Assembly: GCA_012295275.1 (NCBI GenBank)
Contig: CM022672.1
Span: 62,001 to 126,000 of the forward strand
Reading direction: 5' to 3'
Length of the DNA: 64,000 nt
Source of the DNA: Chrysomallon squamiferum
Taxonomy: Eukaryota; Animalia; Mollusca
The translations under genes and the position numbers were made by a program. This document shows positions 23,870 through 64,000 of the stretch, piece by piece (the first letter of the stretch is position 1; each line of letters starts with the position of its first letter). The notes beneath the pieces were generated by a model. That model was not told the origin of the DNA and ran no database searches. It saw only the letters and a list, made by a program, of their open reading frames with translations.

Positions 23870-24069
23870 GACTGAATTCTTTCAGCCTTTATGCGTGTAT
23901 GTTCATTTCATTTCGGTTTGTATTTGATAGTTGTACCCTATACTTTCTTATGACAACATACAGCATATATACTCAAACATCACACATCTGTTCACATATT
24001 AATTGCAATAGGCCAAAAGCATAATATTTAACTCACTTACATCAACGTTTATTAAGGTCATTATAAATT

Positions 24070-32477: not shown

Positions 32478-32503
32478 GTAAATTTGTCTTCAGACTTCAG
32501 AAG

Positions 32504-37397: not shown

Positions 37398-38467
37398 CAG
37401 TTTTTTACATTGTTCCATGGATTCATTCACAACTAATCATCATGTTACACTGCATTTTGTAAACATTTTACCACTTCATTTTGTAAATATCTTTATGTAT
37501 GATGTTTTATAAACAAATATTTTACTACTCAATAAATTTAGATTATTTTATCAGAAAATTTCCTTTTTACTGAGTTTTACTAAATAAATTTATTTTATTA
37601 AGAATACAGAGATAAAACAAATTTCAACATGAAAGATATTATTTATGCTGTTTCCTGGGGTTATTATTATTTTAATTCTGTGTACATTAGTTTATTTTGT
37701 TAATTATACACATGCACCTAATTTATGGTGTGTTTTGGAGGGAGTAATAAAATAGATCATTACATTGGTGATGCAGTTATTAGATACACATTGCAGAAAA
37801 CATACTGCAAAGAATCTCCCACTAAATATTTACTTATAATTTAAACCACATTAGAAATATTAAACATTTATTTTTGACATTGTTTTCTAGTGTTTATTAT
37901 TTATGGGTTGAAATTTTGATAAAATATTACAGAAAATTAAAAATAAACATAATCAGTAATTTTTATGAATATGATAGTACGTATATGAAAGCTTTCTATC
38001 AAAAATTTGCAGGTAGGCATTTTGTTTCTAATAGCCGTCCACCTTGGTTTGAACTGAATGTGTTATATACACTGACTGTGTTAGTCATTAATTAAGTGAA
38101 TTATGAAACTGATCACAATCCTTTCAGTAGAACAGTTACAACACAAAACTAATGCACTTCATAGTTTATTTTAAATATTCAAAGGCTTAATAAACATTCA
38201 CTGTTGTAATGATTAACAAACAATTTAATGGCATTAGTTGTCACAAATTTCAGTGTTTTCGTGTTTTCACATATATTAAGGTGTACCACAAGAATCATCT
38301 TTTCACATAACTGGAAACAATGTATCAGAGTTGGGACTCCCAACACAAAAATGCACATTTATTTCTTACAGTATTTCTCAATTCATATCTGTTCAATTAA
38401 GCATCATTTGTGTGAGACAGGCAGAGTCGCTGGTAACCGTTTTCTTGTGTTGAATTTGTCATTTAAA

Positions 38468-38705
38468 TCATTTGTGTGCTGTTGGATTCGTCACTGTGAC
38501 TACCATTTTCTTGTGTATCTTCACGTGCTGGTTGAGTGCGTCACGTCGGGTGCATTTCTTGCCACAGAGCTGACATGTGAAACGTAGAAGACGCTGATGT
38601 ACACATCGAACATGTCTCAGAAGGGTACATCGCTGAGTGAACACTGTTTGGCAAACGCGACATGTGTGACCATTTAGTTGAGATGGTATGTTCATTTCAG
38701 CAGAT
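38468..38705 (-). CDS. Alternative terminal exon ZF-3: C2H2 zinc-finger pair
   Basis: Acceptor TTTATTTTCAG|A (phase 2). Encodes CRVCQTVFTQRCTLLRHVRCVH-QRLLRFT-CQLCGKKCTRRDALNQHVKIH, then a stop. AATAAA (minus) at ~38363. Confidence 0.82.
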
Positions 38706-40283: not shown

Positions 40284-40680
40284 TATGCAACTACATATGT
40301 TCTATATTATTAAGTATGTGGATCTGTGACAAAAGCTCACTCTGAAACACTTCTAATTGCTCTTCAAAAAGGATGTTCTTTAACTTAGTATCTTGTTACT
40401 ATGATCTTATGAATCTATTAATGACAAAGGTATTACTAGTAGAAGACACCACAACTGATGGGCACATAAAAGCAGAACACTTAGTGGGGAAAAAACTTAA
40501 ATATTTATTTGCCCATCAAGTGAATGGTTTTTAACATCATATGCCATGACACCAGTAACAGTAGTCACAAACTACTGCCATGTATCATAATACCAGAAAC
40601 TCTGGTGACAAACTATTGTTGTATGCTGACATTTTTACAGTTACAAGTTTGTTGTTGAGAAGCTTACCAATGTATTGAGA

Positions 40681-40900
40681 TTATTGTCTTTTCACATGAC
40701 GCTTTAGATGTTGACGGAAATAGTCTTTTCTACTAAATGTTCCATTGCAAACAGTGCATCTCAATCGAACAGAACCAAAATGGAAGTTCTGATTGTGTCG
40801 TGTCAAAGCTGATTTATACGTGAATCGTTTGTTACATTGTTGACACCACAGCTTGTCTGATCTGGGCTGTTTGATACCACCTCCACAATGCTGTGGCTTT
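40681..40900 (-). CDS. Alternative terminal exon ZF-2: C2H2 zinc-finger pair
   Basis: Acceptor TTTTTGATTTCAG|A (phase 2). Encodes CQQCNKRFTYKSALTRHNQNFH-FGSVRLR-CTVCNGTFSRKDYFRQHLKRH, then a stop. AATAAA (minus) at ~40509. Confidence 0.82.
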
Positions 40901-41594
40901 CTGAAATCAAAAACCAAAAATAAAGAGAAAACCATGTCTTATCTATGTATCAGAACTGAAATATATTATCCACTAAATTTTACCCATCTAGGTTGTTTTA
41001 TCTAAAGCAAAATAAAACCAAAATTGAATTGCCAGAAAAATGTGTATTATCTTATAAAATATCACCTTGTAACATAAATATAAACTTGTGACATAATCAT
41101 GTTCAACTTGTTTTATCTAGTAAAATATCACCAGTCAATTTATTATTATCTAGTTAAATGTTACCTCTCAAATTTGAATTGCCAAGTAAAATAATCCAAT
41201 CAAAATAGTATGCAAAATATTAACACTTGACTATGTTATCTTTCAGTGGTTAAATATCACTGGCATATTTAATATTATTTATGTGGCACAGTGTCATGTA
41301 TTATTGTGCAGTGTTCAGAGATTTGTAAACCTTTAATATTTTGCTTTTAGTAATTTGGTTGCAAAAAACAAAACAAAATAAAATGTTTAATTTACCCAGC
41401 ACAACAATCAGTATCTGGTGAAGGACATTAATTGAAAAAGCAGCCCTTCCACTACAAACTGTTTCAAAAACTGTGTACTACAGCCTTTATTACACGTGTA
41501 CCAGTAAGGAAATAGTTGTTAAAATAGTTGTTACATCATCTGTTTCTTTAATAGAATATACAAGTTTGGAATTTCATTACTGAAAAATCTGTTG

Positions 41595-41805
41595 TTACTT
41601 AATTCTGTGAGATTTAGAATGTCGATTTAGGTTGTCTTTCCGGTTGAATTTTGCACCACAAATGTTACAAAAAAAAGAAGAGCCTCCATGGTGGACACAC
41701 TGAATATGACGAATGAGAACATGGCGGTAATGAAATCCTTTGTTGCACATGTCACATGTGTAGACTGGAGAGTTGTCAACTTGGCTACACAATCTTTGCA
41801 CACTT
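41595..41805 (-). CDS. Alternative terminal exon ZF-1: C2H2 zinc-finger pair
   Basis: Acceptor TTTCTCTTTGCTTACAG|A (phase 2). Encodes CDMCNKGFHYRHVLIRHIQCVH-HGGSSFF-CNICGAKFNRKDNLNRHSKSH, then a stop. AATAAA (minus) at ~41491. Confidence 0.82.
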
Positions 41806-44800
41806 CTGTAAGCAAAGAGAAACCACTTTTAGCAGCTAGACTGTGTTTGATACATATAATAGACACAATTCTTTTTATTATCTTAGAATTTTATAAACGT
41901 GTCAAGGATTATTTATGTACTGTTATTTTTGTAAATTAAAAACCTTAAGCTAATGTATGCAAAAATTAACGATAAATTCAAACAATTTGTTCAGTAATAT
42001 TTTAGCATTTTGAAAGATTCAATGTATTATATTTAAAATTTCAGTAATTACAAGCGAACTTTGTGGAATTTTGATATCACTTAGAAGTAATGTATGTAAC
42101 CGTTTCATTTTAGAAAAGATTAATCAGTGACTGGCAAAATGTCACAGAAAAATTACTTGTTAAAATGTGTTTTAATGCATATTCTCCACCTTTCTCTGTT
42201 ATTAAACAAATCTTTAGTATGGAAGCTATTCATACCAGTAATCTGCTACCAGGGCTTTTATATTCCAAACATATAACTGCACAACAAAGTTTTAGTGCAA
42301 ATATATCATAAGAGCAAATGTGCTCTACTTGTGTGTAAAACATTACAACTATGTTCTCATAACCACATGTATATATAGGAAAGTAATTTAAATAAATAGT
42401 TATTGTGCAATAAACAGAGTAATGCCAGGTGCATCAACATTCTTGACTGACTGAGGGATTTTACACTACTGTCAAAGGAGGCAGGGGAAAGAATACAGCA
42501 GTGGAGATGACACACTAGTGTAACTCATAAGAACTAGAATTTGACATGTTTATCAAATACAAGTCAGTGTGATGCTGGCATCATTTTAACTGGATGCTTT
42601 ACATACATGGACTGCTCTAGATGAACAACTATTACCAATGTGGTTTCAAATCTGTTATATTTTTCAAGATATTACTGAATCTCAAATGACCTCCCTAGAG
42701 ATGAATTTGTCAAGACGAGCATGTTAACAATGCTGATCAGCAAACAGTCTTGGGCTATATATTGCATCAGTGGTAATTCACAAGTCACATACACATAACA
42801 ACAGTGGTAAAGATGATGTCACCTGTACAACCAGTACCTCAAAGGCTATGGAAAAGATTAGCAAGATGGTCTTTGTACTGTGCAAGCTGCAGGCCCCGGC
42901 ATGTTGAAAATGTTTGCAGAGCTTGTCTTCAGCTTAAGGAATATAAGGCTGTGACGTTTTCATAAACTGAGTTGGATTCTGTAAATTGCAAAAACTTCAT
43001 GGTACAAACTGATTTCAGTGTATGTGTAAATATATAACCTGACTTAATGTACGGATGTAAATATACAAAATCTTGATTGTGTTATTTGTCAATATACAAT
43101 CAGACTTTAGCACATGAGTGATACTTGTTTGTTTTTACAGACGAATGTATGGTTATTATATCAAACTGTTTTCACTGACAAATGTATGGTTACTCTAACT
43201 TTTCACAGACAAATGTATGGTTACAATTAATTTTACAATTAAGATCACAGACTGTATAAACTATTGTTTAGTTCTCATGCAACATGCAGAACCGTTCTTG
43301 TGTAACCCATTTTCCATTGAGCAAATGTTATTGTGTTAAATGTTATTTTGCTCATCTTTGGAAATAAAATGCAATCACTATGTCAGCAACATCCTTTCCT
43401 GCTCAGTTTGCTGCACTGATACTTGCACAATACTTGTCAGTGGTGCATAGCTTATCCCAGTAAAACCAACAATGAATCCTGACCTTGTCAACTTAGAAGC
43501 TGTAATTTCGGGAGTAGCTTTCTTACAGTTTTCTTGTTTTGTGCAATAAATGAGACTAAAATGTTTTAGTAAAAGTTAGTCGTAATTACACTGTACTATC
43601 ATATATACAGATGATTCCATTATTACAGATAATGAAAAAGCTCCATTTAGGTTAACCAATTTATGCAACTGTACTGCATAATCACTTAATCAGTTAATGA
43701 CTAAAAAAACAACCAAACTACTACAATGTTGATCATTTAACAGTGTTGTCTTGGATTTCATATTACTATTATTAAAAACATCAAAACATTTTTAAAAAAT
43801 AAATAAAATGTTTGCCATCAAGTAGATATTTCTTCCTCTATTTCTTTACTCTTGATGATATTATAGACAATGGAATTTTAGTACAAAAACTACATTTTCA
43901 TATAGTGGGCTCTTTCATAAATATGCCGAGTAATCTTTTAAATGAGGTACATCAAAGAAAAGATGGCAACATTGAGGAAAAGCATCTGTAAGTCTTAGAA
44001 CAACATTAAAACTGTGGAAACTATGAATGATGATTGTGTATAATGTATAATTATGACATCTGATAATTCAATTAGTACATGAAATTTCTACTTTGAACTA
44101 CTACAACTGTTAAGTATGATCAACAAACAAGTATATTTTGTTGTTGTTCAGTATCAAAATGATCTTTGAAAAATAAAAGTGTTATGTCCTTCAACAAGTT
44201 ATGTTAGGATTAATGGTATTTTTCTGTACCAAGACCATGCGAGGGCATAAAAATAAACATTACTGTTTAGAATTAATACCATCCTAGACTGCAAGTGTTT
44301 TAGTACTGGTAGTTGCAGAGAGCCAAATTACTATGTTTGTGTTGATAATGCAGTTTTTAAAGTTTTTTTAGATACATGCATTTCCTATTGCAAATTGTTT
44401 TAAATGCAAGATGTTATTATCATTTATGGACTTATGAAAAATAATTGTTGACTTTGTGTTAATTTTTTGAGTGGATTTCTTTTTTCAATAATGAATAAAT
44501 ACTTCATTATTAATAAGATAGAACATCTAAACCTTCTTGTGAATCATTTTCAGCAAAGGAAGCCTCCATTCAGGCTTCATCATGAGATCATGATGATCAA
44601 ATGACCAGTTTAAGTAAATCAGAGCCTTCGAATTCAATGGAAATGCATTGTAAGTACTTATTCTGAAGTTATTCTCGATTTTTCTGCTCTGAAATACCAC
44701 AGAATAAAGGCCATAATTATAGAGGCATGTACTTTGCTAGGTATCACACCTGCAGGTATTACGAAACAAAGTGGCAAAAATCACGGGATGGTTGGTAAAA

Positions 44801-45947: not shown

Positions 45948-46304
45948 CTGTAGGAACAAATGGTTACATGCTAGTGTATATTTACTTACAAACAAAAGAT
46001 AACACTGAGTACCTAATGGCAGAATAAAAGAAGTAAAGATGTGATTATAAGAAATATTACCTAAAAATGACTAAAACAGATTTAGTTAAATAATTACTTA
46101 CTCACTACTCCACTGATCAGGTATCTGTTTCATTTCTAACAAAGACTTCTGCAAAGAAAGCAAATGAGCACAATATTTAATATTCTGCATTACATATATA
46201 CAAATTCACAAATGAAAATGTAATTATTTTCCTTAAGTATATAACAATTCAACCTATACATGTTTACATCTACCTAAAAAATGATATGGACATTGTAGGA
46301 AATT

Positions 46305-46840
46305 CAGTGTAACTGTTGTTTGACATTTTGTAAATTGTAGAACACATTATAAATGGTGTTTCTTATTATGTAGATTGTAGAACACACAATGTAACTGCTG
46401 TTTCATTCTATGTTGATCGTAGAATACACATTGTAACTGGTATTTTATATTATGTAGATTGTAGAACACAAAATGTAACTGGTGTTTCATAGTATGTAGA
46501 TTGTAGAACATACAACATAACTGGTGTTTTATATTACATAGGTTGATGAACACAATATAACTGGTGTTTCATACGTAGATTGCAGAATGCTAAATGTAAC
46601 TGGTATTTTATATTATGTAGATTGTGGAACACAAAATGTAACTCATATTTTATATTATACAGATTGTAGAACACAAAATGTAACTATTGTTTCATATCAT
46701 ATAGATTGTAGAACACAAAATGTAACTGGTGTTTTATATTATACAGATTGTAGGATGTTAAATGTAACTGGTGTTTCATTTTAGGTGGATTTTACAATGT
46801 AACTGATGTTTCTTATTATACAGATTACACAATGTAACTG
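46305..46840. repeat. Minisatellite (~40-42 bp, TGTAACTGGTGTTTTATATTATGTAGATTGTAGAACACAAAA)
   Basis: About 13 imperfect tandem copies. Confidence 0.9.
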
Positions 46841-47254
46841 AGAGTGGGGCTCAAAACAATTTACAATAACAGTATATTAAAAACACATAGACAAAAACAA
46901 TGGATAATGAATTAAACTAATAATACTTAAAGAGTTCACATATAGTATATGGGTGGTGAATGCAAATGGAAAAGTTGAATTATACTTTGATTGATTTAAG
47001 AACTGACTTTTAAAAAGATGTTTTTGAAACCCTGTTTGAATGTGGACTTTATGAAGCAAATGTCAAATGAAAATTGTTATTTATCATGGATGCAGTATGT
47101 TTTGAATGAAGTTTCAAACAAAACAAGCTAAATTTTTCCTACATTTATGCCATCATCTGTTCCAATAATTATTTCAAAGGCATTGCCACATACTATTAAA
47201 TAAACAAATATAAAAGAGGCTATTTTTACCTAAAATACAACAGTTGAGAAACTA

Positions 47255-47382
47255 AAGTCATGTGACCATAGATTTTTCACTTTTTCATGCATCAGAAGTA
47301 AACTGCTGAAAATGTTCACATATTTTGTGCCGAAGGACTCGTCTGTACAGTTTATAACTAACATTTTGCCCAGAAGTGATGT
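47255..47382 (-). pseudogene. Probable decayed zinc-finger-pair exon
   Basis: Acceptor TTATTTACAG|A, then F-W-A-K-C*, a frameshift to YRRVLRHKICEHFQQFTSDA*K, and a further frameshift to KNLWSH. This parallels LIRHIQCVH..FFCNIC..DNLNRH with Cys codons mutated (TGG, TCT, TGA). Confidence 0.45.
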
Positions 47383-48229
47383 CTGTAAATAAGCTTCATG
47401 ATTTATTAACCAGAAATTTATTTACAGAAATATTTCATCAAAGTTTGTTACTGCTTTTGGGAAGAAAAGACATTTGTATTTAATACACAAATGAGGCTAT
47501 GATTCAGAGGTTTTGTCTAGTCAATATTTTTAAGTTTAGCCATGAGTTTAAATAGTAGTGCTGAAGAAGGTTTTTCCTATAAAAAGGTGGTGGGTTCCAA
47601 GGCACTTTTATTAAGATTAAATGCTTTTTTCACTATATGATGTAACATTCCTGGTATAAACACATATGTAATACCTCAAGATAAGATTTTCCATTCATGC
47701 AGTTTTTATTCAGATAGGACCTGAAACAAGAGAATAAATCAAGTGTTCTTAAAGTCAGTAAAAATATGTCAAGAGAGTATGACTGATGACTAATCAGGAA
47801 CTTTGGAGTACCTATTAATTATGTACTTCTTTGTTTTTCAGCTATGAAGTCTGCAGGCTCAACTTTGGCTGAAATTGGAGATTATTTCCTTACTGGAACT
47901 TTGACAGCCTCTGATACAGAACCAAATCCAGCACCTACCCCTAGACCTTGGATTATCCCTGCTCCTCAGCCTATGTTTGATGTCATTATGTGTTTATCAC
48001 TGGCATTTACTTTGTGAATGAGTTTTGAATGAGTCTTACTCTTATCTTGAAGTGGTATAATGTCTAATTACCTGCATCATTCACAATTGTTAATATAACT
48101 ATAGATTCATTACAAATTCTAATTTGGAATCAAATAGTCTTTATAAGTTTAACCTTTACTATTTTAGAAGCTCAATGTAGATTCCTAAGCATCCCGTGTG
48201 TTCAATATTAGACTGAGCCATGGCAAAAC

Positions 48230-49245
48230 ATTCCAAATGTTTGATGGTTTGAGTCACATGACAAAAGCAATTACAACAAGACTAATGGCAAACAATTAGA
48301 CATTACTAAGTCCATAGTAGACGTCTAACATCAAAAGTTTTGGAATACTTCAATGTATCAACTTCTGGTCTACCTAGAAATGATTTGTTGCAGTTTTGTA
48401 TAGATGGCCCTTCAGTGAATTGCACTTTTTATGACAAAATTGGACAAAGAAAACAAGAATGAGAATGGTATGGCCTATTGAATACTGGGGCTGTGGCCTC
48501 CAGGTCTTTCATGTGGGCTTCCAGACAAAGAAAACAAGATAGATTGTGGTCCTAATGACCTTCTCTCCATACAATCTGTTTAAAGATACTCAGCCAGACA
48601 GTTGTTTCTGTTCAGAGAAATCAGTAGGCAATTTTGGTGAAATGTGTTGGACATAATCTTGGAAAAGTCTTGTCTGAATTCCAGGTCAATGGCGAGTAAT
48701 CAAGAACACAAAGTAAAAATTCTAACACCTGTTGATGTAACAGGTTCGTGAACTGAAGACTAGTTTCTAGGACTTCAAGGTTGAAGGTAATACAGTTGCT
48801 CTGTTATTCTATGTATATATATGGGTAAAAAAATGCAATTTGAAAAGTTGTATTAAGTAGTTGTTATGTTGTTGTTAGTTTCCCAAGGTCAGAAATCTGT
48901 TGAGATGGGGGGTTCTCTCCCAGATGAGGACAACATGCTTATGGCACGGAGACAGATTACTGAATATTCTGAATTGGTAGGACTCTAGGAGGAATACAAA
49001 AACTATCCTTAGTTCCCAAAGCCTGACAGTCCATCAATATCTTAAAGAAGAGAAATGAAACAAATGGCAAGAACTCATCCAAATAAAATTTAAAAAATAA
49101 GAAAAATGTTCTAGAATCGGACTCAAAAAATCTGATCACATTTTTAGGAAAATATGCAGATGAGGCTCAGGCAAAAATTGGCAAAACTAACTATACTAAA
49201 TTGATAAAATCGAATGCTCTCAAGAACTCTGCAAAACAAAAATAA
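48230..49245 (+). mobile_element. Decayed hAT-like DNA transposase relic (intronic, antisense to host gene)
   Basis: Frameshifted peptide LPRNDLLQFCIDGPSVNCTFY..LLNTG/CGLQVFHVGFQT (DG plus CxxH-like region) at ~48365-48530, and KYADEAQAK..LIKSNALKNSAKQK* at ~49150-49245. Many stops. Family assignment is from motif recollection. Confidence 0.5.
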
Positions 49246-50629
49246 AAGGGGGGATGGGGGAACAGATCTGTAGATTTTTTATTTGGATACTTGTCTAACT
49301 GGATATGAATAAGCTAAGAGCTGGGCTAGCTCCAACCATGTTAAATCTTCTGTTAATTTTCAACTACTTTACTGACGTACTTCTGGGAACTTTGTTCAAA
49401 GTTGTTTGTCACTGACTGCCAACACTCCTGATAAATTCTGTGTTATACATTATTAAAATAAATTTTTACATGCAAACTAGTTTGTATTTGTTATTTCCTA
49501 TCTTGTTTAAAGGGACATTTTCCATTAAACACCAAAGCAAATCTCACAGCTTCCCATAGGGAATCCCTATGAATTGATTTTGTTGTCCATAGTTTGTTAT
49601 GAACTGTGTAAGGCTGTGGGTTTGGACACAAAGTTAATGTCTTCTCATTTTACATGGCTATACAAATGTCAAAAATGAAAATATTGAATAAACAAAATTT
49701 GGTATAGGACTGAACCTTGATTACAAATATAACACAATGTGGAAATGCTGTCATAGTTATATGGGTATCTTGCTTTGTTAAAATTCACTGCCTTTTGAAT
49801 AAGTCCAGTTTGTTCCAAAATATTAATTTTGTGGTGTATGTCACTTGTGCTCCCTAGTCTGTGTAGCATCCGGTTTTGCCAGATATATTCACTTAGTTTA
49901 CTCATTTAATCTCTAAGTATTGTCCTTAAAAAGTGGTTATGTAAGACATTAAAAGTCCTAAAAAAGACAGTTAAAAAATAGTATGTATCCTGTTTTAAAC
50001 AGATTTATATGAACAGCACATGCCAAAATGTTTAAAACTTCTTAAACAATTAAACACATCTCCATGAATATCTTGTGTCAAAATGTTTAAAGATTCTAGC
50101 TACTGAACAAATCTACTACATTATCAGATCTGTAAGAACATAAATGCTTTATGATAATGTATTAATATATTTTTATCAAATTTCATTATAAATAAGCTTC
50201 ACCATTAAATTTGACTTGGACTGTGGTGCAAACACATGTTTATTTAAGATACCAGAGAAGATCTCATTTATGTAAAATTCATAAAAGAATATGTTGCCTA
50301 ATTAAAACAAAAAGAAAAGAGGATTTTTTTATGGCAAAATATAAGACAGGTAATATGATTTATGTAAAATAAATGTTTCCTTTTGTAAAACAGAACAAGA
50401 TATGTACTTTTATAAAATTAAAGAAAAATAATCATATTTATTGCAAGATAGAGGTAGACCACATCACACAAAAAATATCCAAAACAAAAATTATATCTGT
50501 GTAGTACAAAAGAAAGAGGAAGATATTTATGTAAGTACAATTTAATAAAAAAAACAAACAAAAAAAAAAAAAAGGTATGTACAATATAAATAAGAGATTA
50601 TGTGAAATAAGTGTCTTTCAGGGAAACTG

Positions 50630-50971
50630 TTAAGATCCAAATTCTACGGACTGTTTCATTTCTCTGCTATTTATCACTTTTTTCATCTCAGGCCACCTCT
50701 CCAGGAATTTATAATACCACTGTCTGCTCACTCCCTGGTTATGACCTCGCTTACCAAAACTCACTGCAAATTTTGATGCCATTTGGAGAACAAGAGCTCT
50801 GCTGAGGCTGACACCTTTAGCAGCTGATGATAGCAACAAAGAGCAAAACTGTTTTTCTTCTTGCTGTGTGAGAATCATGCGTCTATCATTTAACCTACTG
50901 GCCCAGACATCTTCTCCTACTGCTACTGAAGAGTCAGTGTGAAGATTAGTGTCTTGCATAACAAGACCAAC
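50630..50971 (-). CDS. Exon 3 of the multi-isoform factor; read-through encodes a CENP-B/pogo-type helix-turn-helix and stop; candidate internal phase-2 donor after 50895
   Basis: Acceptor TTTAACTTCCAACAG|GTT, phase 0, matching the exon-2 donor. LTQQEEKQF..GVSLSRALVLQMASKFA..K..GVSRQWYYKFLERWPEM fits the HTH CENP-B pattern. AG|GTTAAA lies within W-A-S-R. Confidence 0.75.
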   Translation of the reverse strand, partial: VGLVMQDTNLHTDSSVAVGEDVWASRLNDRRMILTQQEEKQFCSLLLSSAAKGVSLSRALVLQMASKFAVSFGKRGHNQGVSRQWYYKFLERWPEMKKVINSREMKQSVEFGS

Positions 50972-51923
50972 CTGTTGGAAGTTAAAAATCACACATCAGC
51001 AGCTCCTCTCTAACAGCCACTTTCTGCATTAACTAGTATATTCTTCTGGATCCCTGGCAACATTTTTCCACCAAACAACAAATAATCAAATTACAAATTT
51101 GTATTTCTCAACAATTCAAAGCATACAAAACCATTACAACAGTGAAAACTAAATATTGTCTGACATACGTCTTAAGATAAGCTTTGAAATATTTCAACAA
51201 AATGTGTGGATGCAAATGCTAACTTTACTTACTTAATGAATAGACATTTGTAACAAACAGATTAAATGAATTGGTATTGCTGAAAACAGCATCATCTGCC
51301 TTTAATTAAAATATTTTCGTAACTTTGGAAATGTAAATCCTTAGAAATTCCTGACAGCATAAAGAAGTCAAAGAATTTAATGTTGTTCAATAAAAGTGTT
51401 TCCACAACAATACATATTCAAGTCATCACAATAAACTGTAATACATGTATCATACTCACTGAAACAATAAGCCTCAACACAAACCTATTGTTAACAGTGA
51501 CAAATGCTGACAAATATATGTACTTGAAAAATATACATTACTATTTTGGATATTTATACTTTAAACAATGAAAACACTTCAAAGTATACAAAATTCATAA
51601 CAAATGCACTTTTCTTTTCATTATATTCATAATCTTAATTATAATTTTCATGTATTTAAATAAAAAGATAATAAGTAATCCATCTGTTGTGTTAAATTAA
51701 ATGAACTCCTTCAAGTATAAATCATCCTTTTACAAGGAACAGTGAAACATCTTACATTAATATTTTACATTTTCTGGGAAGGATTAATTAGTAATATGTA
51801 TCTTACAAGTATGCTTGTCACACAGTAAACTGTAAAGATAAGGAGCTGTATATTTAGTATAGTATTATTGTTTATGAAAAATAAAACCAGTTGTAAAAGT
51901 TCATTGGTTATATGGTGACATAC

Positions 51924-52189
51924 CTGAGATGTTGCATCTGAAACATCACTGTGAAACACTTCTGAAGAATCAAAATCATCAGCATTAGAATAAAAGACAG
52001 TGTCTGAAGCTAATGTCACACTGTCATGCCCATCTGTAAGTGGATTATCTATCACCAGGTATGGAGTGTCTTCTTCCTTCTTAATTTCCATTTCATTTGT
52101 TTCACATTTTGAATCCAATGCTTCTGAGGTCTCATCTGCAGCATCAGTATTTATAACACAGAAGTCATCTAACACAGAAGTCAATTTAT
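51924..52189 (-). CDS. Common exon 2 of the multi-isoform factor (acidic linker with IKKEED motif)
   Basis: Acceptor ATATTTCAG|AT (phase 1, matching the exon-1 donor); donor CAG|GTATGT (phase 0). Encodes DKLTSVLDD..EMEIKKEEDTPYLVID..DATSQ. Confidence 0.75.
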
Positions 52190-52969
52190 CTGAAATATTT
52201 CATATAGACCAATATCAACATTTACCAAGCTAAAAATATTGTTTACATTTCTAGATATAATGCCATTTTGGAGACTTATTTAAAACAATGTAGTCAGTAA
52301 CGCTTATTTCAATGTTAAGTTTTTGTTCCATGTCAAAATCACAGACTGGAGGTATAAAAGGATTATTTCATGTTGGGTACTAAAACTTTAAGAAAGAAAT
52401 ACTGAAAAAAAAAGAAAAATAAATAAATGAAAAATGAATTACATTCATGTTAGCAAAACTAAAAACAACAAAAGCAGTGGAAGCACTACAATTGTTAAGT
52501 AAAATGAACACTAAAGAGTTAAATTATCTATTTCTCAAGTCATCAAAATGCCAGATTATTCACTGATTAAGTTTGACAAACTAAACATGATGAAAGATTT
52601 TTAAGATCAGTGCAGCATATCAGATTGCAAGATCCTGTAAATATTTTCATGATTTTTATCAAAGGCTGAACATGTATTAGTTGATAATTTTCACAAATGC
52701 AAATAAATTTTTGCTATATATTGCTCATGGTAAAAGTTTATTTAAGTTTAAAAAAATGATTTTAATATTTTAGTGCTCATGATAAAAATATATTTAAGTA
52801 TAAATAATTTTAATTTTTTTTTTTTTTTTTTTTTTTAGGGTGGCAACTTATTTTTCAAATTTATTATGGTGCTACTAATTTTAATTGAGGGCTTCCAGAA
52901 TTTATACCCAGTTGGAAAAATTAAGGTTAAAGCCTGCAACCTCTATATGCACTAACTACCCATGTCATC

Positions 52970-53300
52970 TAGAGCATAGATCAATTTATCTAAAATATTT
53001 TATATCTAGACCATTAAGAGAATTTATATAATCTTCTAGCACAGACGTCAGTTTATCTGATATATTTTATATAGACCAATAACAGAACATAGCTAGTCAT
53101 AAAACATAGATGTCAGTATATCTGAAATATTTTATATAGACCAATAACAGTATTTACATAATCATCAAGCACAGACATCTGTTTATCTGAATTATTTTAT
53201 ACAGATCAATAATAGTATTTACTTAGTCATCAACACAAATATCAGTTTATGACATATTTTAAACAGATCAATAACAGTATTTACCTAATCATCAACAGAC
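52970..53300. repeat. Minisatellite (~63-65 bp) homologous to the exon-2 acceptor junction
   Basis: About 5 copies of CACAGA.GTCAGTTTATCTGAAATATTTTATATAGACCAATAACAGTATTTAC, matching 52173-52226. Confidence 0.8.
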
Positions 53301-53902
53301 AGGACCTTCTTTTTTCTTCATTCCTTCACTTATTTAAGGTTATGCAATTCAATACACACTTTTTAAAAAACCCAGCATATTCTCATATTAATACAGAGTA
53401 CAGAAATCAATCAATTGTAAACTATATTTTCTTGTGTCAGCTACACATTCATTTCCAGCCAATATTTTATATGCAATCAAGGTATTCGGTTGTAAACGGC
53501 AGCTGATGTTCAATGATTTATGGATCAGTTGTTCGCAGGTTAGTGGCAAAATACTAAGTATAAAAACTAACAAATATACATACTCACTACTCAGGAAAAC
53601 TTCAAATAAATATATAACTATATAATTAATAAATACTGTGCACATTATTAAGCTCTTCTTTACAAACAATAGGTGCTAGTTTGGCATGTGATCTACACAA
53701 TCTAGTGATCTACACTGACCAAATTCTATTCTGGTGTGTCAGCTAGATGCTTATTTGAATAATTATTTTTCACAGCATAAATGATCCAAATTTTCCTTTT
53801 ATTATGAAGTCATAATTTATAGGAACAAGGGCTAAAAGGTATATACATTTGAATAATTTTATCAATGAATTGAGCTAACATCTGCTAGAAACACAAGAAA
53901 AA

Positions 53903-54047
53903 GATCTTCCCTTTTCTTTGAGCTTCCTTCATTTCACCACCACCACAACAATGACATTGTTCAACATTTTCTCCATCATCTACAAGGCCATTTCTTCATA
54001 AAAATGTAACTGCCTTCATCTTGTTGATAAAAATCTTTAGCCGACAT
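53903..54047 (-). mobile_element. Possible Merlin/IS1595-like transposase N-terminal fragment
   Basis: Minus-strand peptide KAVTFL*RNGLVDDGENVEQCHCCGGGEMKEAQRK resembles the A..FL...GL...CxxC...M zinc-ribbon start of such transposases. Short, with a stop. Confidence 0.3.
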
Positions 54048-55112
54048 CTTAAGGGTTCTTTAGAAATTTTAAAGTAAATGAACAAGTAAAATCACAGAGT
54101 GCAATGTAGATTAACTACCACATCTATTCAGAAATAAAGTCTGCCTGGATGTGATGTTTTTATAGATGCATCAAGCATTAATCCTAACGGATTTTAATAT
54201 CTTCCTATCTAATCCATTTCTGATACTATTTAATCTATTTCTGAAACAAACTAGGTCAAATCTGTTGCATTACTTGACCTGTCTGCTATAAACAGACATT
54301 TTCTGTTAAAGAAATACAATTATCCTTTGTCATCATGCTCTTATCTTAAAGAAATGTTCTAGATTTGTTTTGATTTATTTATTTTTGGCTAGAGTGTGCC
54401 CTTTAAGTAGTCACACACCAAAATAGTTTCATGATGTACAGATCACACACCAAAGTAGCACCAAACAATAAATGTGTCACTAGTCAGACACATTGCATTC
54501 AGAGTAAATTAAGGGGACAGACAAGGAGGTAGTTATATCAGCACTGTAAAGTATTGGATTATGAAGAACACTAGAGGGATGTGGTTTCCTTTCTAAAGGA
54601 TGTTGATCATATATTTTTTGTTTTAAATTAATACAATTTAAAGAAAGGACAAATATCCTTAGGTATAAACAAAATTAAGTTAATAGGAACAATTCAGTAT
54701 ATATTTATTTTGTAAAGAAGAGCTGCTAACTACAGACATCATTTATTTCATATATCACATACAAAGATAAAAGGAATGATACTGATATGAAACTGAATAA
54801 TCACAAGAATTGGGAAGGAGGTGCTCTCTTCAGTATGAATACTATTTGGTGATCAACAGTTTATTCTGTAAGAGCAGAAATTAAAAAAATATATAAAATA
54901 CTTCTTCACTTTTCTGTATTCCTCAGAAATATAATACAAGGAAATCTTAAGGATAAACATGAAATAAGACTGAAGAGGGATGGAGTTGTCAAGCTCCAGA
55001 GATGGGAACCTTCCTTCCCACCAAAGATGAATAAATTTATAAAACACAAAGCTATTATGAAAATACAAATTCATTATTTATATATAATTTAATATTTCTA
55101 ATGAATTCAAAC

Positions 55113-55719
55113 CTTTATTGCTGATGTTATTATCTGTCCAGCTGCTGTCCATCAACCTGCATTTCCGTCTGTAAGTCTGACTGCTGTCTGAAAGCCTGCG
55201 TTTCAGTCTGTCAGTTTGATCTACTGTCCGAGCTCCAATTTGAACAAAAGTATTTTGATGTCCAGTTGATTCATTTGAATTAACTACTGATGATTTTCTC
55301 AATTTTTGCTTATCATGTAAAATGTTTTTTCTTCTATTTGTTTTTGAAGAATGATTATCGAGGAATGTTAATGATAGTTCATTTTCACAATTGTTAGTTA
55401 CCTCTGCAGTAGTGACAGGAAACAGAATACTGGAGTTTCTGCTACAGTTTTTACTGTAATTTCCAGAATCTCTTTTTGAAACAGGAGGCTCTTTTTGGAG
55501 TGTCTTGAAAGCTTTTGTACAGTAACTCTCACTAATAACATTTCCTGAACTCTGCAACATTTCACTTAATACATATCTTTCTTTTTTATGATTATCTATC
55601 TCAACTGCCAGATAACCACTCAGCTCAACACACTGATCAAATTCTATATATTCTCGACAAAATTTCTGCATTGCTTCAACAAATGAAGTAAAGAATTTCA
55701 CGGAATACTGTTTATCCAT
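55113..55719 (-). CDS. Common first coding exon of the multi-isoform factor: conserved uncharacterised N-terminal domain plus low-complexity region
   Basis: Long ORF MDKQYSVKFFTSFVEAMQKFCREYIEFDQCVELSGYLAVEIDNHKKERYVLSE..ISESY.., an upstream acceptor (exon starts 55849) and donor AAAG|GTTTGA (phase 1). The paralog at 63942 shows only synonymous changes. Confidence 0.82.
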
Positions 55720-56027
55720 GATGTCACAGAGTGTCAGTCTCTCTTTGCAACAATTGAGTCAAACAGCAATGTGCATTTACAAAAAAACTGTTCAACAAGA
55801 AAAAACAAATAACATCATCCAAAATACCTTTACTTGGACTTAACAAGATCTGAAAACAGATAAATGAAATCTGATTAGTTAAATATAAAAACTGTATTAT
55901 TATGTCTCACTTCCTTACAAGAGTAAATTGTTTTTTGGGGGGAGAGGGGATGGAAGGAGCATACATTAACTTCAAACCAAGATGAACACTAGTCAACATT
56001 TTTTGTTAACAGTCTGCTAAAATAAAA

Positions 56028-56029
<2 letters not shown>

Positions 56030-56094
<65 letters not shown>
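56030..56094. repeat. (GA)n microsatellite
   Basis: Pure dinucleotide run. Confidence 0.95.
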
Positions 56095-56096
<2 letters not shown>

Positions 56097-57155
56097 AATT
56101 TCTCAGGTTTATAATATATATTTATTATATATTTTGAGTTAGTTTTTGTCTAAGTTGATGTGCAGTTTGATGTTTAAATGTGAACAGTGCATTAATTCTA
56201 CAAACATCTGATATGAAATAAATTCAATCAGTTTTGAATTATGAATATGATACATAAATGATTATTGCAACTGTCTGCGGATATATACTGTTTTTTCATA
56301 CATAAAAGTATGGCAGCAAAGGAATGATTAACACATTATAGAATTTATTGTTAATTTGAAAGAAAAATAAAATGTAAAATTCTTACTTATTCAATTTACC
56401 ACTGATATGTATCATTTGTACTGCTTTAAAAAAGTATAACTTAAACATTATTCATCATGGAATAATTAAAATGAAAATACAATTGACTAAAACAAGTCTA
56501 TGTTATGATTAAATATTTGGTAACAAGAAATTAATCAAATTCCTATGAAATTGAATGAAAAAGTACTTATCTTTTATTTCCTTCTAAACTTAATAGTTCT
56601 GTGTATATGTGTGTATGTGTGATCTTTAATAAAACTAGGGAGCAACAGTTTTAATTCAGTAACTAATTGAACCATATGATAAGGCCGAAGGCAGCCATTT
56701 TGTTCATTAAGACAACTACTTACATCGTGAAAAGCAATGTATTCCTGATGAGGTGTTTCAGGATTTTTCTGTGTTGTTATAGTCTTTAAATGATTCTGAA
56801 CATAATACTTAGACAAATATACACTTACGATAATCTAAGAAGCATGTCAACCATTTATGTTACTTAACAGCAAAAACTATAAATAACACGATTTTTTTTT
56901 TTTCGCTTAGTTCCTAACCGCCAAGAATTACCTCCCTTGCATTTGACAATGGGTTTTGACTGAAAATTTAAATTTTTAACAACACTGAATTCTGTGTCAT
57001 AAAACGTAAGTTTGTAAATTTGGAACTATAAATTTTTGACACAAGACTTTGTTAAGTACTAATATGTGATAGAGATTATTTATGTTTAACAGAGTTTTAT
57101 ACCCTTATACAGCATAAAGCAAATGCAAATTACTAACGACAAAAAAATATATAAA

Positions 57156-57202
<47 letters not shown>

Positions 57203-57277
57203 AATAAATAACACAAACATTTCAATCTATATAATTTTACTTTCTTGTCTCATCAACTGTCCAAAACCAGATCAGTC

Positions 57278-57279
<2 letters not shown>

Positions 57280-57342
<63 letters not shown>
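57280..57342. repeat. (TC)n microsatellite
   Basis: Pure dinucleotide run. Confidence 0.95.
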
Positions 57343-57345
<3 letters not shown>

Positions 57346-58591
57346 GCATCTATCTGATATAGGTGATTTTGATACATTATCTCTTAAGAAAACAGTAAGG
57401 TAAGAACTTTATAAAAAGGTTTTCAAATGGAACCTAAAACAGTAAGCCCTACAAAATAACCTTCCCTGCTAACAAGCAAAATAATACCGTACATGCAATT
57501 ATTTCTTGTGAAAAGTGAATAGTGGCTTACCATTTCCAAAATTGAATTTAATGCTAAAATATATTCATCTACAAGATTAATTTAAAAAACACAATAAATA
57601 AATAAATAAAAAGTCAGTGCAGTAATCTGAAGTATCAGTTAAAAAAGAACATCGAAAAACATTCAGGGTTTGACATTTCTTTTCTCGTATAGGAAAACAT
57701 CTAATTCCATTTTTTTTTTTTTTTTTTTTTTTTCAAATCTCAATTCATCTTAGCTTAGGAATGAACAGATTTAAAAAAAAAAAGCTAAAAAAAAAAAAGT
57801 AATTAAGTTGCAATGAAGAAGGAAAAAAAACACCTTGTAATTTAAAAATAGATGTTTGTCCCTAAATGTTGTGAAATGTATCATAACTAATATATAACCC
57901 AAAGCTGGAGATATTGCTAAATCGAATAAGCAATAAATAATATAGCTTTACAAACAGCAATATTCAGTCTACCAGATTTCCTTCATCTTGCTGAATTTAC
58001 TGTTTATCTTCTGAAAATTTAAACAAGTCAAACGGTAATTCCCTGTAACTTAGTGACAAAATAGTGGCACTATACATGTCAGTTTAACGGTATGTCACAG
58101 TTATATGTGTATGCAGCTAAAATCAGCATAACAACTTATCGATAATTTTCTACAGATGGTTGTTTTTCTTTTTCATATCAGATTAGCTTAATTCATTCGT
58201 TAATAAAATGCCAAGATAATACTAATTTACTGAGACCTTAATGTCTTGACTCCATATATATAAAATACTGAAGCAGTATTTAAGTTCCTTGGCTGCTCAA
58301 TTTATGCTTTCACTAACAAATATATAAAATCATAAATTTCTGAAAAATAATCCTTTTTATATTTTTCATGGCTTGTGTAATAGTTGACTTTGGAGATACT
58401 GATTTATTATTATTTTTATTATTATTATTATTATTATTATTTAGCTGAATAATATTTGTTCTTCTAGATCTATGAATTCTTAAGGAAAGTTGATTTTAAA
58501 CATTGCATGAATGTGTATTTGCCTAATATAAAATTAACACTTCACAAAAAATTTATGTTATCTTTTATTATCGTATTTATTTATTATAATA

Positions 58592-58639
<48 letters not shown>

Positions 58640-61302
58640 GTGACAAGGGGAAACAAGCAGATCTGTTAGCTACCTATAGGCTGGTATATCACTAAGGAAT
58701 AAACAAACAAGACAGGGTTTCCAATTAAAGAGCTTTAACACTTGGGAATCCCTAATATAGTAATATTAATATATACAACAAGGTAACTCTGGCGTCTTCA
58801 AGGACAAACTGACCAGGTTCATAAAACCATAGTTAATTAATACAAATCATCATAAAATTTCTGCAGTGGCAAAACTAAAAAATTAAACCAATACAAAAAC
58901 GTTGATGTTTAGATAAAAAGTAAAATAATTATAAAATTACATATTCAACAAACACATAATTAAATAAATAATATAAAGTTCGATACAATCAAATCTGGGG
59001 AGAAGTCAATAGTAAAGTTCATTCACTCCTGATATAAGTTTGACCCCATTCCATGTGTTAAATATAATCTTTAAAAAAAGCAATTAACTTCAGCAGGGGT
59101 TCAGCTGAAAACGTATTGAAATGAGAATGAATATGATATTCTTTATTCATACCATTATTTCAATGTGTATAATTTATACATCGGCAGTAATGTTTTTCTT
59201 TGTATTTATTTAATCAAATGTAGATGGGAGTTTGTACACATAGTCGTACTGTTACAGACTTTCTTTTTCCTTTACTTCTTTTATTATTGTGTTAATTAAT
59301 TAATTTAATTGTCTGTTTGTTATTATTTGATAGAACGCGTTTTCTTATTCGTCATCTCGTAAAAGATCACAGAACTATTAACAGATGAATTTTGTTATTT
59401 ATCAACAACAAAATGATTATACTACTATAAGTTTGTAATAGATGCTGGGGAAAAAAGCATGATGGACATAACAATTTTTCATGCATCCAAGTATCTTTTT
59501 AATGACAAATATCTGATAAACTAACATTAAAATTAACAAAGATTGAGCTTATTAAGTTATTAGCTATCGCAATTTGTTTTTCTTCAGTATACGGTTTTAG
59601 TTCTAATACCATCTTTTAACATATATATCGTCCTTGATAAGGCATGAAATTAATAGATAATAAATATCTTTTTCCTTTTTATGAAACAGCCTTAACTGCA
59701 AAGATCTTTTCGTAAAAATGAAAAATTTATTACATTTTATTCGATATTTAAGATGCCGTTTATTTTTATTTTCTCGTTAAATTATTTTACCATATTCGAA
59801 GTGCGTCCGGAAAAGGAGGAAGACACATCAAAGAAATCGTGCAAAGAGTGACCCACGCTAAGCGACAAATGGTGAAATTTGCAAATAATTGAATGTTTTT
59901 AGTTGCTAGAAGTAAGTATTAATTGGATATTATATACAATGAATCTTGCTGATATATGGTGTATATTAAATATTTATAATAAAACAATATTCAAATCAGT
60001 TACAGATGATTTTGGTGCAATGGTTTGCCGTAATAAATTACCACTCTTTGTTGAAGTCGCTAGACTTGATTGAGGTTATTTAGAAAATGTATATCCACTA
60101 AACACGTTTCCCGAAAATTAATGTTTTGGATGCATTAAGAGTCGATCCTTATTAAATTAAAAAAATAATCTATTTCGTGTCCAGCAGGAAAAAAAAAAAT
60201 TGCTTGCCCTCTAAAGGAATAACCTTTTAATTAATCTAGAATTTAATTTATTTATTTTAATTGTTTTAATATATAATAATATATGTATTAAAAAAACAAC
60301 TAAACACGAACATATATATATTATGTTCGTGTTAATTAAATGATTCAGTATTAATAGAACAGTTTGTTCTTAGTCGTGTATTCCTATTCTGAGTTATTAT
60401 CAGGTTTGCTACCCTAAAAAGCAAAATGTACTGGTGTTAAGAATTGGTCCAGAATGTTAATTCTCTCAGTTACAAAAACTATTAGCCTTCACTAGAAATC
60501 CATAGCCAGTACATTATCTAATTTATTATCTATATATAAATAAAATTAGTTCATAGGTAAAATTTAAACAATGAAGATGCGGAATGCTGGACGGATGTTG
60601 TTTTATTTGTTGTACCAACTAGTGGCAGTATAATTGAAGCTCACTCATAACTTGGATTTTGGCTTGCAGCTCAAAGCAAAAACTCGACAGGGCTACTGCT
60701 TGTAGTTGGGGCACCACTCTATTTGTTTCTTCATGTATTTATGTCTGAGTGTTTATTCTACCAGACACAATATCAGCTGCATACATTTATTCCACTAGAT
60801 ATCCATATGCAATAGTTTCTTCCATCAGACTTTAATGTTATTGTATATTTCTTTGATGTTCCAGCTTCCTTCCTTGTTTTTTCTTAAAGAAAGTGGACAA
60901 AATTGGACAAAATATTTTTTTCACATTCTGGCTGTTGGCAGCTTGCTCTCTAATGTCTTTGGTTAATCAGATTTTACAAGCATAATTTATGTTAACTTAA
61001 TATTATAACAAATATCATGTCACATGAAAAGAATAATATTACAGCAGTGTCTGTCTTAACCTGTTTTTGACCAGTGATATAACCATTTCATCAGACAGAA
61101 AAGTATTAATTAATCTGACTAAAAATTAACTGGAAATAGAATATGAATAATACACTTATGTCTTTAATTTGTTTTTAGAAAACTGAATAAATGCTTCTCT
61201 CATGGTCTGTTCAGCAGTTGGAAGGGATTTGTTTGTTTGTCCCAATGGCAGAGCCAAGCATGTTCTGCCTTAGTGATCTGAAACTGATTGTGATAGTTAT
61301 AT

Positions 61303-62692
61303 AATCTCTCAAAAAAAGAAATGCAGAATGGTTGATTTCTTAGATAACTATTGTAAAGTGACACATATTGATGTACAAACTATAAATATAATGACGTTTG
61401 GTGATTCAAATGTATAGCTTTTGTTACAGTCGCCAAAAAGCAGGTAACACAAAATAAAGGCTATGATCATGTTTAATAGCCAAAACGTTCCCGCATGCAA
61501 ACCACATTACCAGTGCATGTGCACCTTCAGCACATGAAACTTGAATATGAGGGTTATAAAAATGCAAGGTTTTCAAATACTTCTGTTCGTTATTTTTGTT
61601 CTGACCTAACATCTGAGTGAACTGCAACGAAACAACACCATCGGCCGTTTACAAGCTGGTGAATCCTTCTCGGACATAGCACTGGTGTTCCATGTATCCC
61701 CAAGCACCATCTTGAGATTGTGGTATCGGTTCCAGCAACACCAAACAACAAGTGATCGTCCCAGATCAGGTAGACCACGTGTAACCACCAGGGCCCAGGA
61801 CTGCTACATACAGGTACTTCATCTATGGGAAAGAACCACCATGGCAACCTCTACTGCTTCAGCAATACCAGGTCTGCATAGAATATTGGCTCAGACAGTG
61901 CACATAATTTACGCAAGGCAGGTAGGTATTCAAGCCAGACGGCCTGTAAGAAGAGTGGTTTTGACTCAGCAACATCATTGACTACGACGTCATTGGTGTC
62001 AAGTGCACAGAGTCACGCCTCAGTTACGATGGAGAACTGTCTGGTTAAGTGACAAGGCTCAATTTTTGCTTCGTTGAGCTGATGGAAGATGTCAAGTTTA
62101 CAGATGTTGTGATAAACATTTTGCTGCAAATTGCATACAGGAAGCAGACAGATTTGGCGGTGGTAGTGTGATGGTGTGGGCAGCAATCTCATACACTGGC
62201 AGGACCGACCTGGTTCACATCCAAGGCAACTTAATGGTACAGAGATACTGAGATGAAATTTTGCAGCCACATGTCACTCCAATTATGAATAATGGTAACA
62301 CTGTATTCCAGCACGACAGTGCAAGACTACATACACCCAGACTCGCAACAGCGTACCTACACAACAATAACATTTAGGTCCTGCCCTGGCCCTCTAAATC
62401 TCCGGATCTGAACCCTGCAGAGCATTTATGGGACGAGTTAGATAGACAACTGAGGCAGCATCAACCACAGCCATAGAATTGTGCTCAGTTGGCATTATTA
62501 CTACAGACAGAGTGGGCCACCATTCCACAAGGTGTAATTCGTAATGTCATTACTGCCATAGGAAGGAGATCTCAGGCAGTTCTGAACTCCCATCGTGGGC
62601 ACACAGTATAATACCATCAGTATTAATGAATTGCAAAAGTGTGTGTAAAATGTGAACATTCTGCTGCTTTCTGTTTATTTTTTATTAGAGTA
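61303..62692 (+). mobile_element. Tc1-family transposon, near full length, inactivated
   Basis: Transposase remnants DRPRSGRPRVTT, ARRPVRRVVLT, GSVMVWAAIS..GRTDLV, VFQHD, VLPWPSKSPDLNPAEHLWDELDR and GHTVY* with stops and frameshifts. Degenerate TIRs (..CTCTCAAAAAAAGAAATGCAGAATG / CATTCTGC..TTTCT..TTTTTT..AGAG) with TA flanks. Confidence 0.9.
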
Positions 62693-63941
62693 TATTTTGT
62701 TGATTTCAATAAATTAAAATTTGTTGTTGAAGGGTCCAAAGGCCCAAGTTGTGAAGCATGGTTATTTGATAAAGATGATTCATAAAAGATGACAGATCTT
62801 TGCAACTATAATTTACACATTCACAGTCTTGTTTACAAGTTTATGCATTATTATATTTGTGCTTCTTAAACAATATATTCAGCTCACATTTTGTCAAAGT
62901 ATACAATTGCCATTTTTAAAGATGTGTCAGTCACATGATTAAATTTGAAAAACTGGATACGCATTTCCACTTAACAATCTGTAACTGAACATTCGATTGA
63001 ATGGTAGGCTTAGAAAATGAGTTATTATCTAAAGCTTATCTAGTTGTTATGACAAAACAAATCTGAAAAATGTAGGGGAAGCAATGTAGATCATTTTCAT
63101 TTGTGATACTTGATTGTTAATTATATATAAAATGTCTGCCAAAATTGGTCTAAAATGTCTCTTTCTTTTTCAGGCACTTTTCAGAACAATTTAATGCAAA
63201 TATGAAGGGTAGCATTAGTAAATGTTTCTTTTTACTGCTCAAAAATGATCTTTTAAATGAAACATGAAAGAAGATATGATCAGGGATGTAAATCTGCAGA
63301 AAACAAAAAATTGGCACATTGACTAAATTGCATATTTTCTGCTGCCACACGTTGTCTTAAAACCTGTCCTGCCTTAAGCTCTAAAAACTGCCTTTTCATA
63401 ACTTGAATTACTGGCAAGATCACTAGCAGTCACCTAGATCAAGTTATGTTATGAATTCTCATAATTACAATGATGGGTGGTTGTCACTTCCAGAAAAAAG
63501 CCAGCTATAGCAATTGATATATCAGAATGAAGAGATACGTTGTAAACAATAAATCCTAAAATATACATTATCGTAATTTATAGATCTGAATGAAATTCAT
63601 TTTTCTTTTCTCTGATATACATACTCTATTATGCATTAAAAAAAAGTAATAATAATAATTTAGTTGACTTGCTATCAAATTTTTCATTACTAACATTATT
63701 TTGTTTTGTTTCATTTTTTTCTTGCAAAAGAAAATGTTATTTAGAACTAAACAGGTGATCACATTTATTGAATTTATAAATAAAATATTTTGTTAGGCCC
63801 TTGACAGTATTTGTGTGTGTGTGTGTGTGTGATTGGTTTTTTTTAATTATTATTTCTTTTTTATTATTTTATACAAGATATTTTATTTAAATTTTAATTT
63901 AAAAAAAATATTTCTCTTCCAGATTTTTGTTGAAATATACA

Positions 63942-64000
63942 ATGGATAAACAATATTCAGTGAAATTCTTTACATCGTTTGTTGAAGCAATGCAGAAATT
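63942..64000 (+). CDS. 5' end of an inverted paralog of the 55719 gene (runs off window)
   Basis: Acceptor TTTCTCTTCCAG at 63922, then ATG GAT AAA CAA TAT TCA GTG.. = MDKQYSVKFFTSFVEAMQK, identical in protein to the minus-strand gene. Confidence 0.85.
   Translation, partial: MDKQYSVKFFTSFVEAMQK

Follow-up and report, generated by a model that had tools for sequence, protein, structure and literature searches.

A conserved, apparently unnamed N-terminal domain precedes alternative DNA-binding-type ends in a Chrysomallon squamiferum gene and its gastropod relatives

Introduction

The window analyzed in this study, a 64,000-nucleotide stretch of the genome of the mollusk Chrysomallon squamiferum (assembly GCA_012295275.1, contig CM022672.1, positions 62,001 to 126,000 of the forward strand), carries on its minus strand a gene whose first coding exon encodes an apparently unnamed 74-residue N-terminal domain (55498..55719), together with the start of a paralogous gene pointing in the opposite direction. 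A first-pass annotation made from the sequence alone had described the domain as an unrecognized, possible analog of BTB and had proposed that it serves all isoforms of the gene as an oligomerization or cofactor-binding module.

KRAB and SCAN in tetrapods, and ZAD and TTK-BTB in arthropods, are lineage-specific N-terminal domains of expanded transcription factors. Domains of this type explain the expansion of transcription factors group by group. The literature searched, with most subscription journals outside its scope and supplements not covered, names none for gastropods and contains no publication on the domain described here or on its family.

Results

Exon organization of the cassette gene

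Gene structure was derived from RNA contigs of four runs of a single study, aligned to positions 37000-56000 and 55000-64000 of the window. All exons found lie on the minus strand in collinear order, and the exon encoding the domain is spliced in all four runs. The 5' untranslated exon (56724..56858; true 5' end undefined) is connected by the joint 55849/56724 in three runs to constant coding exon 1 (55113..55849), which contains the start codon at 55719, the domain, and a low-complexity linker, and has its GT donor after 55113. An in-frame stop precedes this ATG in the spliced 5' leader. Constant coding exon 2 (51924..52189) encodes an acidic linker and is reached through the joint 52189/55113 in four of the four runs, with 255 nucleotides on the shorter side.

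From the donor of exon 2, transcripts continue either to 50971 (two runs) or to a 47-nucleotide hub exon (46102..46148; joint 46148/51924 in all four runs), which is common to the downstream isoforms. The former acceptor opens a variable exon (50630..50971) encoding a Tc5/CENP-B-type helix-turn-helix (HTH; PF03221, 26.8 bits, above the cut-off) and ending a 404-residue isoform. An internal donor of this exon, joined from 50755 to 46148 on the minus strand in one run, leads out of frame into the hub exon and would truncate the HTH.

The hub exon donor is joined to four acceptors: 41805 (three of the four runs), 40900 (two), 38705 (one), and 42978 (one, with 28 nucleotides on the shorter side). 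The last of these begins a short variable end (42960..42978) with a stop after six codons, which gives a 312-residue isoform without a DNA-binding domain. The remaining three acceptors open variable exons that each encode two C2H2 zinc fingers (PF00096 in exon A): exon A (41396..41805; stop ending at 41595, 376-residue isoform), exon B (40668..40900; stop ending at 40681, 379 residues), which is orthologous to the end of Gigantopelta aegis protein P0007, and exon C (38036..38705; stop ending at 38468, 385 residues), reached directly from 46102 in a single run. Exon C is the last exon seen, and its 3' end is approximate. Five alternative ends, therefore, stand behind one front end; all joints are of the GT-AG type, and all five isoform frames (404, 376, 379, 385, and 312 residues) are open.

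Exons A and B also possess donors within their 3' untranslated regions (UTRs), at 41396 and 40668, respectively. The former is joined to 40900 in two of the four runs and the latter to 38705 in three, with up to 233 nucleotides on the shorter side. Since each donor is chained to the next cassette, downstream cassettes can remain in the 3' UTR without being translated, and isoform choice would depend on the first acceptor reached from the hub exon. The stop codons of exons A and B lie 199 and 13 bases before these donors, distances that may bear on nonsense-mediated decay. The locus has a cassette architecture, in which common 5' exons are followed by alternative 3' exons of DNA-binding type. 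The earlier proposal that one module is common to all isoforms agrees with the RNA joints at the locus and with the groups of isoforms found in related species.

Sequence and conservation of the domain

Translation placed the annotated peptide where it had been reported, at 55719 to 55480 of the minus strand, within a 226-codon stop-to-stop frame. The Ser/Asn/Lys-rich, low-complexity tail noted behind it was also recovered, with these residues making up 44 of the 122 positions from 81 to 202 (36%) compared to 23% in the domain. Conservation stops near residue 73: between the window protein and its G. aegis ortholog P0007, 71 of 74 domain residues are identical (96%), whereas in the linker the number is 65 of 205 aligned residues (~32%). 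The domain contains 9 K/R and 11 D/E residues, with a net charge of -2 as read from the sequence, and has no basic N-terminal arm.

A start pattern that the first-pass annotation had ascribed to uncharacterized mollusk zinc-finger proteins fits the wider family, in which F9, C21, F27, G35, D42, and E53 are each kept in 172-179 of 180 distinct aligned domains. In an alignment of 77 sequences, G35, D42, and E53 are invariant and F9, C21, and F27 nearly so. The suggested occurrence in mollusk zinc-finger proteins was correct in that the domain is present there; its scope was too narrow, as the carriers are cassette genes found across gastropods, with ends of many kinds.

No Pfam family was matched by the 80- or 213-residue translation (E<=10), and none reached the cut-off level among the 77 family members (best E 0.011). 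BTB, KRAB, SCAN, ZAD (zf-AD), and SRF-TF were absent even from the chance matches of these members (E<=1), in line with the earlier impression that the domain belongs to none of the first four families. Searches of PDB sequences gave no match with the single sequence and none with the 77-sequence profile (E<=10). In the ESM Atlas, the window domain retrieved three bacterial hypothetical clusters, all under 0.85, and the Aplysia domain gave no usable match; a scan of metagenome DNA with a shallow alignment (A1) gave 125 pattern matches, none of which was confirmed. A chance resemblance is excluded by the 130 homologs of the single sequence and the 259 clusters matched by a profile, both described below. 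The domain is real, expressed, conserved, and apparently unnamed.

A gastropod family with exchangeable ends

The 130 homologs were found with the single window sequence (E<=1e-3). A 20-sequence profile compared with 1.84 billion representatives gave 259 clusters (50% identity) at E<=1e-3 and 55 at 1e-10; this search was not iterated, 150 of the clusters were listed and 109 were not, and 14 of the 30 clusters looked up carried an organism name. A profile built from distant members gave 298 proteins, 120 of them listed. All organism names among the matches listed are those of gastropods, which does not establish absence from bivalves, cephalopods, or annelids, and similar starts may occur in other lophotrochozoan proteins; the genera named are Gigantopelta, Haliotis, Lottia, Patella, Pomacea, Batillaria, Nucella, Aplysia, Elysia, Plakobranchus, Lymnaea, Physella, Biomphalaria, Bulinus, Bradybaena, Candidula, and Arion. 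Two proteins were excluded from the alignments: P0158, a low-complexity false match (best stretch 4.3 bits), and P0159, which appeared broken.

Of 389 proteins fetched, with isoforms counted separately, 387 carry the domain, always in a single copy, and in 373 it starts no more than 35 residues from the N-terminus. When G. aegis proteins were grouped by their common start, 18 constant regions were distinguished, all located on one 91.7-Mb sequence, and 14 of them were followed by 2-19 different ends among the proteins retrieved. One Aplysia gene has 18 ends behind a common part of 316 residues, while a Physella gene has 16 and a Biomphalaria gene 11.

The ends of family members include C2H2 fingers (mostly two or three), psq, Tc5/CENP-B HTH, BEN, BED, DUF3504, and zf-Tnp_2, several of which are folds of transposase type; many Haliotis members end in DUF3504. 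Among 40 hand-picked, mostly non-C2H2 proteins, 18 matched Pfam (E<=0.01) and 22 did not. In P0081, P0086, P0174, P0227, and P0247, the variable end is an arginine-rich helix resembling a bZIP basic region with no cut-off-level Pfam match, and P0019, P0044, P0056, P0250, and their kin carry conserved, unnamed end modules that likewise lack such a match; these ends are candidates for new DNA-binding domains. Database names of the isoforms ("BTB domain-containing," "SCAN," "Krueppel-like," "EGR1-like," and so on) are borrowed from the swappable ends, which hides the family in databases.

In a tree built from 61 domains over 74 columns, in which many forks were unresolved, vertnin-like proteins formed one clade (98/84) and the group with Aplysia-type cassette genes another (100/97), with the window domain in a weaker group (86/84). 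Haliotis members occur in all three groups and limpets in two; the subfamilies, therefore, probably date to early gastropods. In the vertnin-like P0177 (Lottia), P0233 (Haliotis), P0191, and P0192, the domain lies behind a second unnamed, conserved, basic segment.

A diverging paralog in the window

The second gene points away from the first. The 3' end of its 5' untranslated exon (59882..59911, plus strand; exon start undefined) is joined through 59911/63923 (GT..AG, three of the four runs) to the beginning of a coding exon (63923..64000, plus strand) that has its ATG at 63942 and is cut by the window end. The paralog suspected at 63942 is real: all 19 residues available are identical to those of the window domain, with four synonymous differences in 59 nucleotides. 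An RNA contig of the paralog aligned with the window domain for 244 bases, with 12 mismatches, and the residues encoded after it resemble those of G. aegis P0004/P0005, of which the paralog is probably the ortholog. For the window gene, comparison of its linker with 133 fetched proteins gave G. aegis P0007 (LOC121382815) as the best match, and exon B is the variable exon most similar to the zinc-finger end of that protein. We infer that the pair of paralogs is older than the split between the window species and G. aegis.

The paralogs (55476-55719, minus strand; 63942-64000, plus strand) are ~95% identical in DNA, but only within the domain; the sequences that follow it are unrelated, and several G. 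aegis pairs behave likewise. Domains of G. aegis paralogs differ at none of 76 residues between P0017 and P0019 and between P0047 and P0051, and at one between P0004 and P0007, while their linkers are unrelated. Some substitutions are common within a species: K8 is present in both window copies but Q8 in their orthologs P0006 and P0007, and D23 is present in P0003 and P0006. These two sites hint at gene conversion between paralogs. An opposite-strand joint, 55660/64000, was considered as trans-splicing and is read instead as a transcript of the paralog that runs past the window end and aligns with the nearly identical copy on the minus strand.

Predicted structure of the domain

The AlphaFold2 model based on 77 aligned sequences (mean pLDDT 82.7, pTM 0.68) consists of one long amphipathic helix (residues 4-24) lying across a three-stranded meander (strands at 30-41 and 45-56, the third, at 61-68, being weaker), which agrees with the order of a helix followed by strands proposed previously. 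An initial model from shallow alignment A1 (pLDDT 56; best Z 4.2 in a fold search) was set aside as poor. Across the 180 distinct domains, eight helix positions are hydrophobic over an arc of 140 degrees, and C21 lies within this arc; eight strand positions on one alternation are hydrophobic in 99-100% of domains and four on the other in 59-83%. The hydrophobic surface looks larger than a monomer would probably bury.

Foldseek searches with the monomer model against PDB and BFVD gave no match at E<=0.001, and VIA-align against 48,161 chains gave none at Z>=5, the best being a pseudopilin (Z 4.8, rmsd 3.6, 66 aligned residues) tied with unrelated rows; these searches exclude no unlisted family, and they neither name a fold nor show novelty. 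In a mutual-information analysis of the 180 domains (effective number 72), conserved columns dominated the signal, and no contacts emerged.

Other features of the window

Positions 1-16951 contain ~44 copies of a satellite of 374-378 bases (~44% GC), whose orientation changes across an N-gap near 11740-11943; copies are 89-91% alike in the left part and 98% in the right part. A prohibitin 1 gene (E 5e-26 to the human protein) has its final coding exon at 27576-27926 on the minus strand. Two genes on the plus strand that resemble each other have exons at 21508-23924 and 32417-37400; one of them weakly matches a homoserine-kinase-type protein (E 0.024), which we take to be hydroxylysine-kinase-like. 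A transcript spliced on the plus strand extends to 38059, where it meets or overlaps the cassette gene at its 3' end. In the first intron of the paralog, 61600-62550 (plus strand) contains a decayed transposase-like remnant, presumably Tc1/mariner-like, with an HTH_38 match below the cut-off and many divergent RNA contigs. Minisatellites with unit lengths of 42, 65, 44-46, 29, and 101-102 bases are found in introns and intergenic regions at 46308-46791, 52980-53297, 33828-34076, 28504-28687, 17398-18315, and 24215-24415.

Discussion

Proposed function and alternatives

Our preferred interpretation, which we consider fairly probable from analogy and from the surface pattern of the domain, is that the domain serves a gastropod family of cassette transcription factors as its constant N-terminal module and acts in homo- and hetero-oligomerization. 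Splicing joins one front end to one of several DNA-binding-type ends, and two or more copies of the domain would complete a hydrophobic core by pairing their sheets and helices. Another copy would best complete a narrow sheet that has one broad hydrophobic helix and, in addition, a second face that is partly hydrophobic. Isoforms with two fingers or a single HTH could in this way pool their ends to recognize longer or composite DNA sites, gaining specificity and affinity, and the near-identical domains of paralogs, placed before unrelated linkers, would allow isoforms of different genes to mix. Oligomerization is supported by the gene layout, since a single front end with many unrelated DNA-binding-type ends is the layout of TTK-BTB genes, and the domain is not basic, which makes it unlike a DNA-binding module.

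Several points weigh against this interpretation. It depends on an analogy and a surface pattern, and a co-repressor might bind just as well to the hydrophobic surface. It does not account for the conserved C21 or for D42 and E53, which are polar and invariant; these residues may indicate where a ligand or partner binds. DNA binding by the variable ends is deduced from Pfam labels. RNA contigs cannot give expression levels, none covers a complete isoform, and most alternative joints come from contigs of a single study with only 28-32 nucleotides on the shorter side. Moreover, 4 of the 18 G. aegis constant regions have one end only among the proteins retrieved, and no cassette was seen for the vertnin-like proteins, which are 1,600-1,770 residues long and have the domain further in, at position 93-115.

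The strongest alternative, which we regard as rather unlikely, is a monomeric, KRAB-like module that recruits a single conserved co-repressor or co-activator of chromatin, with the ends carrying this activity to sites such as transposons. Such a role would suit the strong conservation of the domain compared to the fast-changing linkers and the lineage-specific expansion on one G. aegis sequence. However, the subfamilies that share just 21-33% identity with the window domain keep the core pattern but few surface residues, and most isoforms possess only two or three zinc fingers, too few for specific targeting as a monomer. The many ends of transposase type would also fit cofactor recruitment, DUF3504 being derived from a Crypton recombinase according to the portion of the source available (PMC3212892). 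Recruitment of a cofactor is compatible with oligomerization, and BTB does both.

It is improbable that the domain is a diverged form of a known helix-plus-hairpin dimer fold, such as a MADS box, contacting DNA as a dimer. The MADS box has the order helix-strand-strand, which the model reproduces, and a basic, DNA-binding N-terminal arm; the domain has no such arm and a net charge of -2, no Pfam family rose above chance in the 77 members, and their profile matched no PDB sequence (E<=10). A ZAD-like module that would bind metal through C21, D42, and E53, or through cysteines contributed by two chains, is very improbable: although C21 is kept in 177 and D42 and E53 in 179 of the 180 domains, only one cysteine is conserved family-wide and lies in the hydrophobic arc of the helix, whereas ZAD needs four conserved cysteines in two pairs.

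The oligomerization interpretation can be extended, as a tentative proposal that we find conceivable but doubtful as a whole. In it, the domain would be an undescribed oligomerization fold defining a major spiralian class of transcription factors that has been overlooked, and mollusks, perhaps also annelids, would have independently evolved a system of the lola/mod(mdg4) type. The domain would be a hub capturing transposase-derived and zinc-finger exons, and tens of genes with tens of ends each could mix through near-identical domains kept alike by gene conversion.

Comparison with known systems

Similarly to the KRAB-, SCAN-, and ZAD-zinc-finger families, the gastropod family combines a lineage-restricted N-terminal domain with an expanded, clustered set of DNA-binding proteins. 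It differs from them in the lack of sequence match, in deriving its diversity from alternative short ends of each gene and not from long finger arrays, and in including folds other than zinc fingers. KRAB and SCAN are all-helical domains, in contrast to the model presented here, which has a single helix followed largely by beta-strands. A survey from 2025 on C2H2 expansions in cephalopods yielded, in its accessible text, no passage with "BTB," "N-terminal," or "splic" (PMC12513265).

The Crypton-derived DUF3504 likewise forms a C-terminal module in KIAA1958, KCTD1, QRICH1, and ZMYM/WOC, and KIAA1958 has two isoforms with different DUF3504 exons, as reported in excerpts of the same Crypton study (PMC3212892). 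In gastropods, DUF3504 is one of many ends, and none occurs among the exons found for the window gene.

The closest parallel is provided by Drosophila lola and mod(mdg4), which, like the gastropod genes, combine a constant N-terminal domain, a long linker, and many alternative 3' exons of DNA-binding type. According to the sections available of a study of TTK-type BTB factors, these proteins have many isoforms differing in the DNA-binding domain, with 17 of 20 lola isoforms carrying different C2H2 ends and at least 30 isoforms of mod(mdg4), and their BTB domains form homo- and heteromultimers (PMC11426971). The same sections describe a BTB core that comprises 100-120 residues and is made up of five helices and three strands, preceded in the TTK type by an N-terminal FxLRWN motif, and state that the TTK motif was not found in Mollusca or Annelida (PMC11426971). 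In contrast, the gastropod domain has 74 residues with one helix and three strands in the model, and the FxLRWN motif is absent from the window domain and from alignment A2. Without a profile match, and with a different size and predicted secondary structure, the window domain does not appear to be a BTB. Differences also exist in gene organization: mod(mdg4) mRNAs are made by trans-splicing, as stated in the part of the source available (PMC13490949), whereas the window exons are collinear on one strand and would need none, and in gastropods many paralogs each carry their own cassette.

The domain profile gathers members mislabeled in databases, so that the family can be tested in Aplysia, Lymnaea, Biomphalaria, and abalone. 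If the domain oligomerizes, the gastropod genes would represent a convergent solution to the regulatory design of lola and mod(mdg4), built on a different fold.
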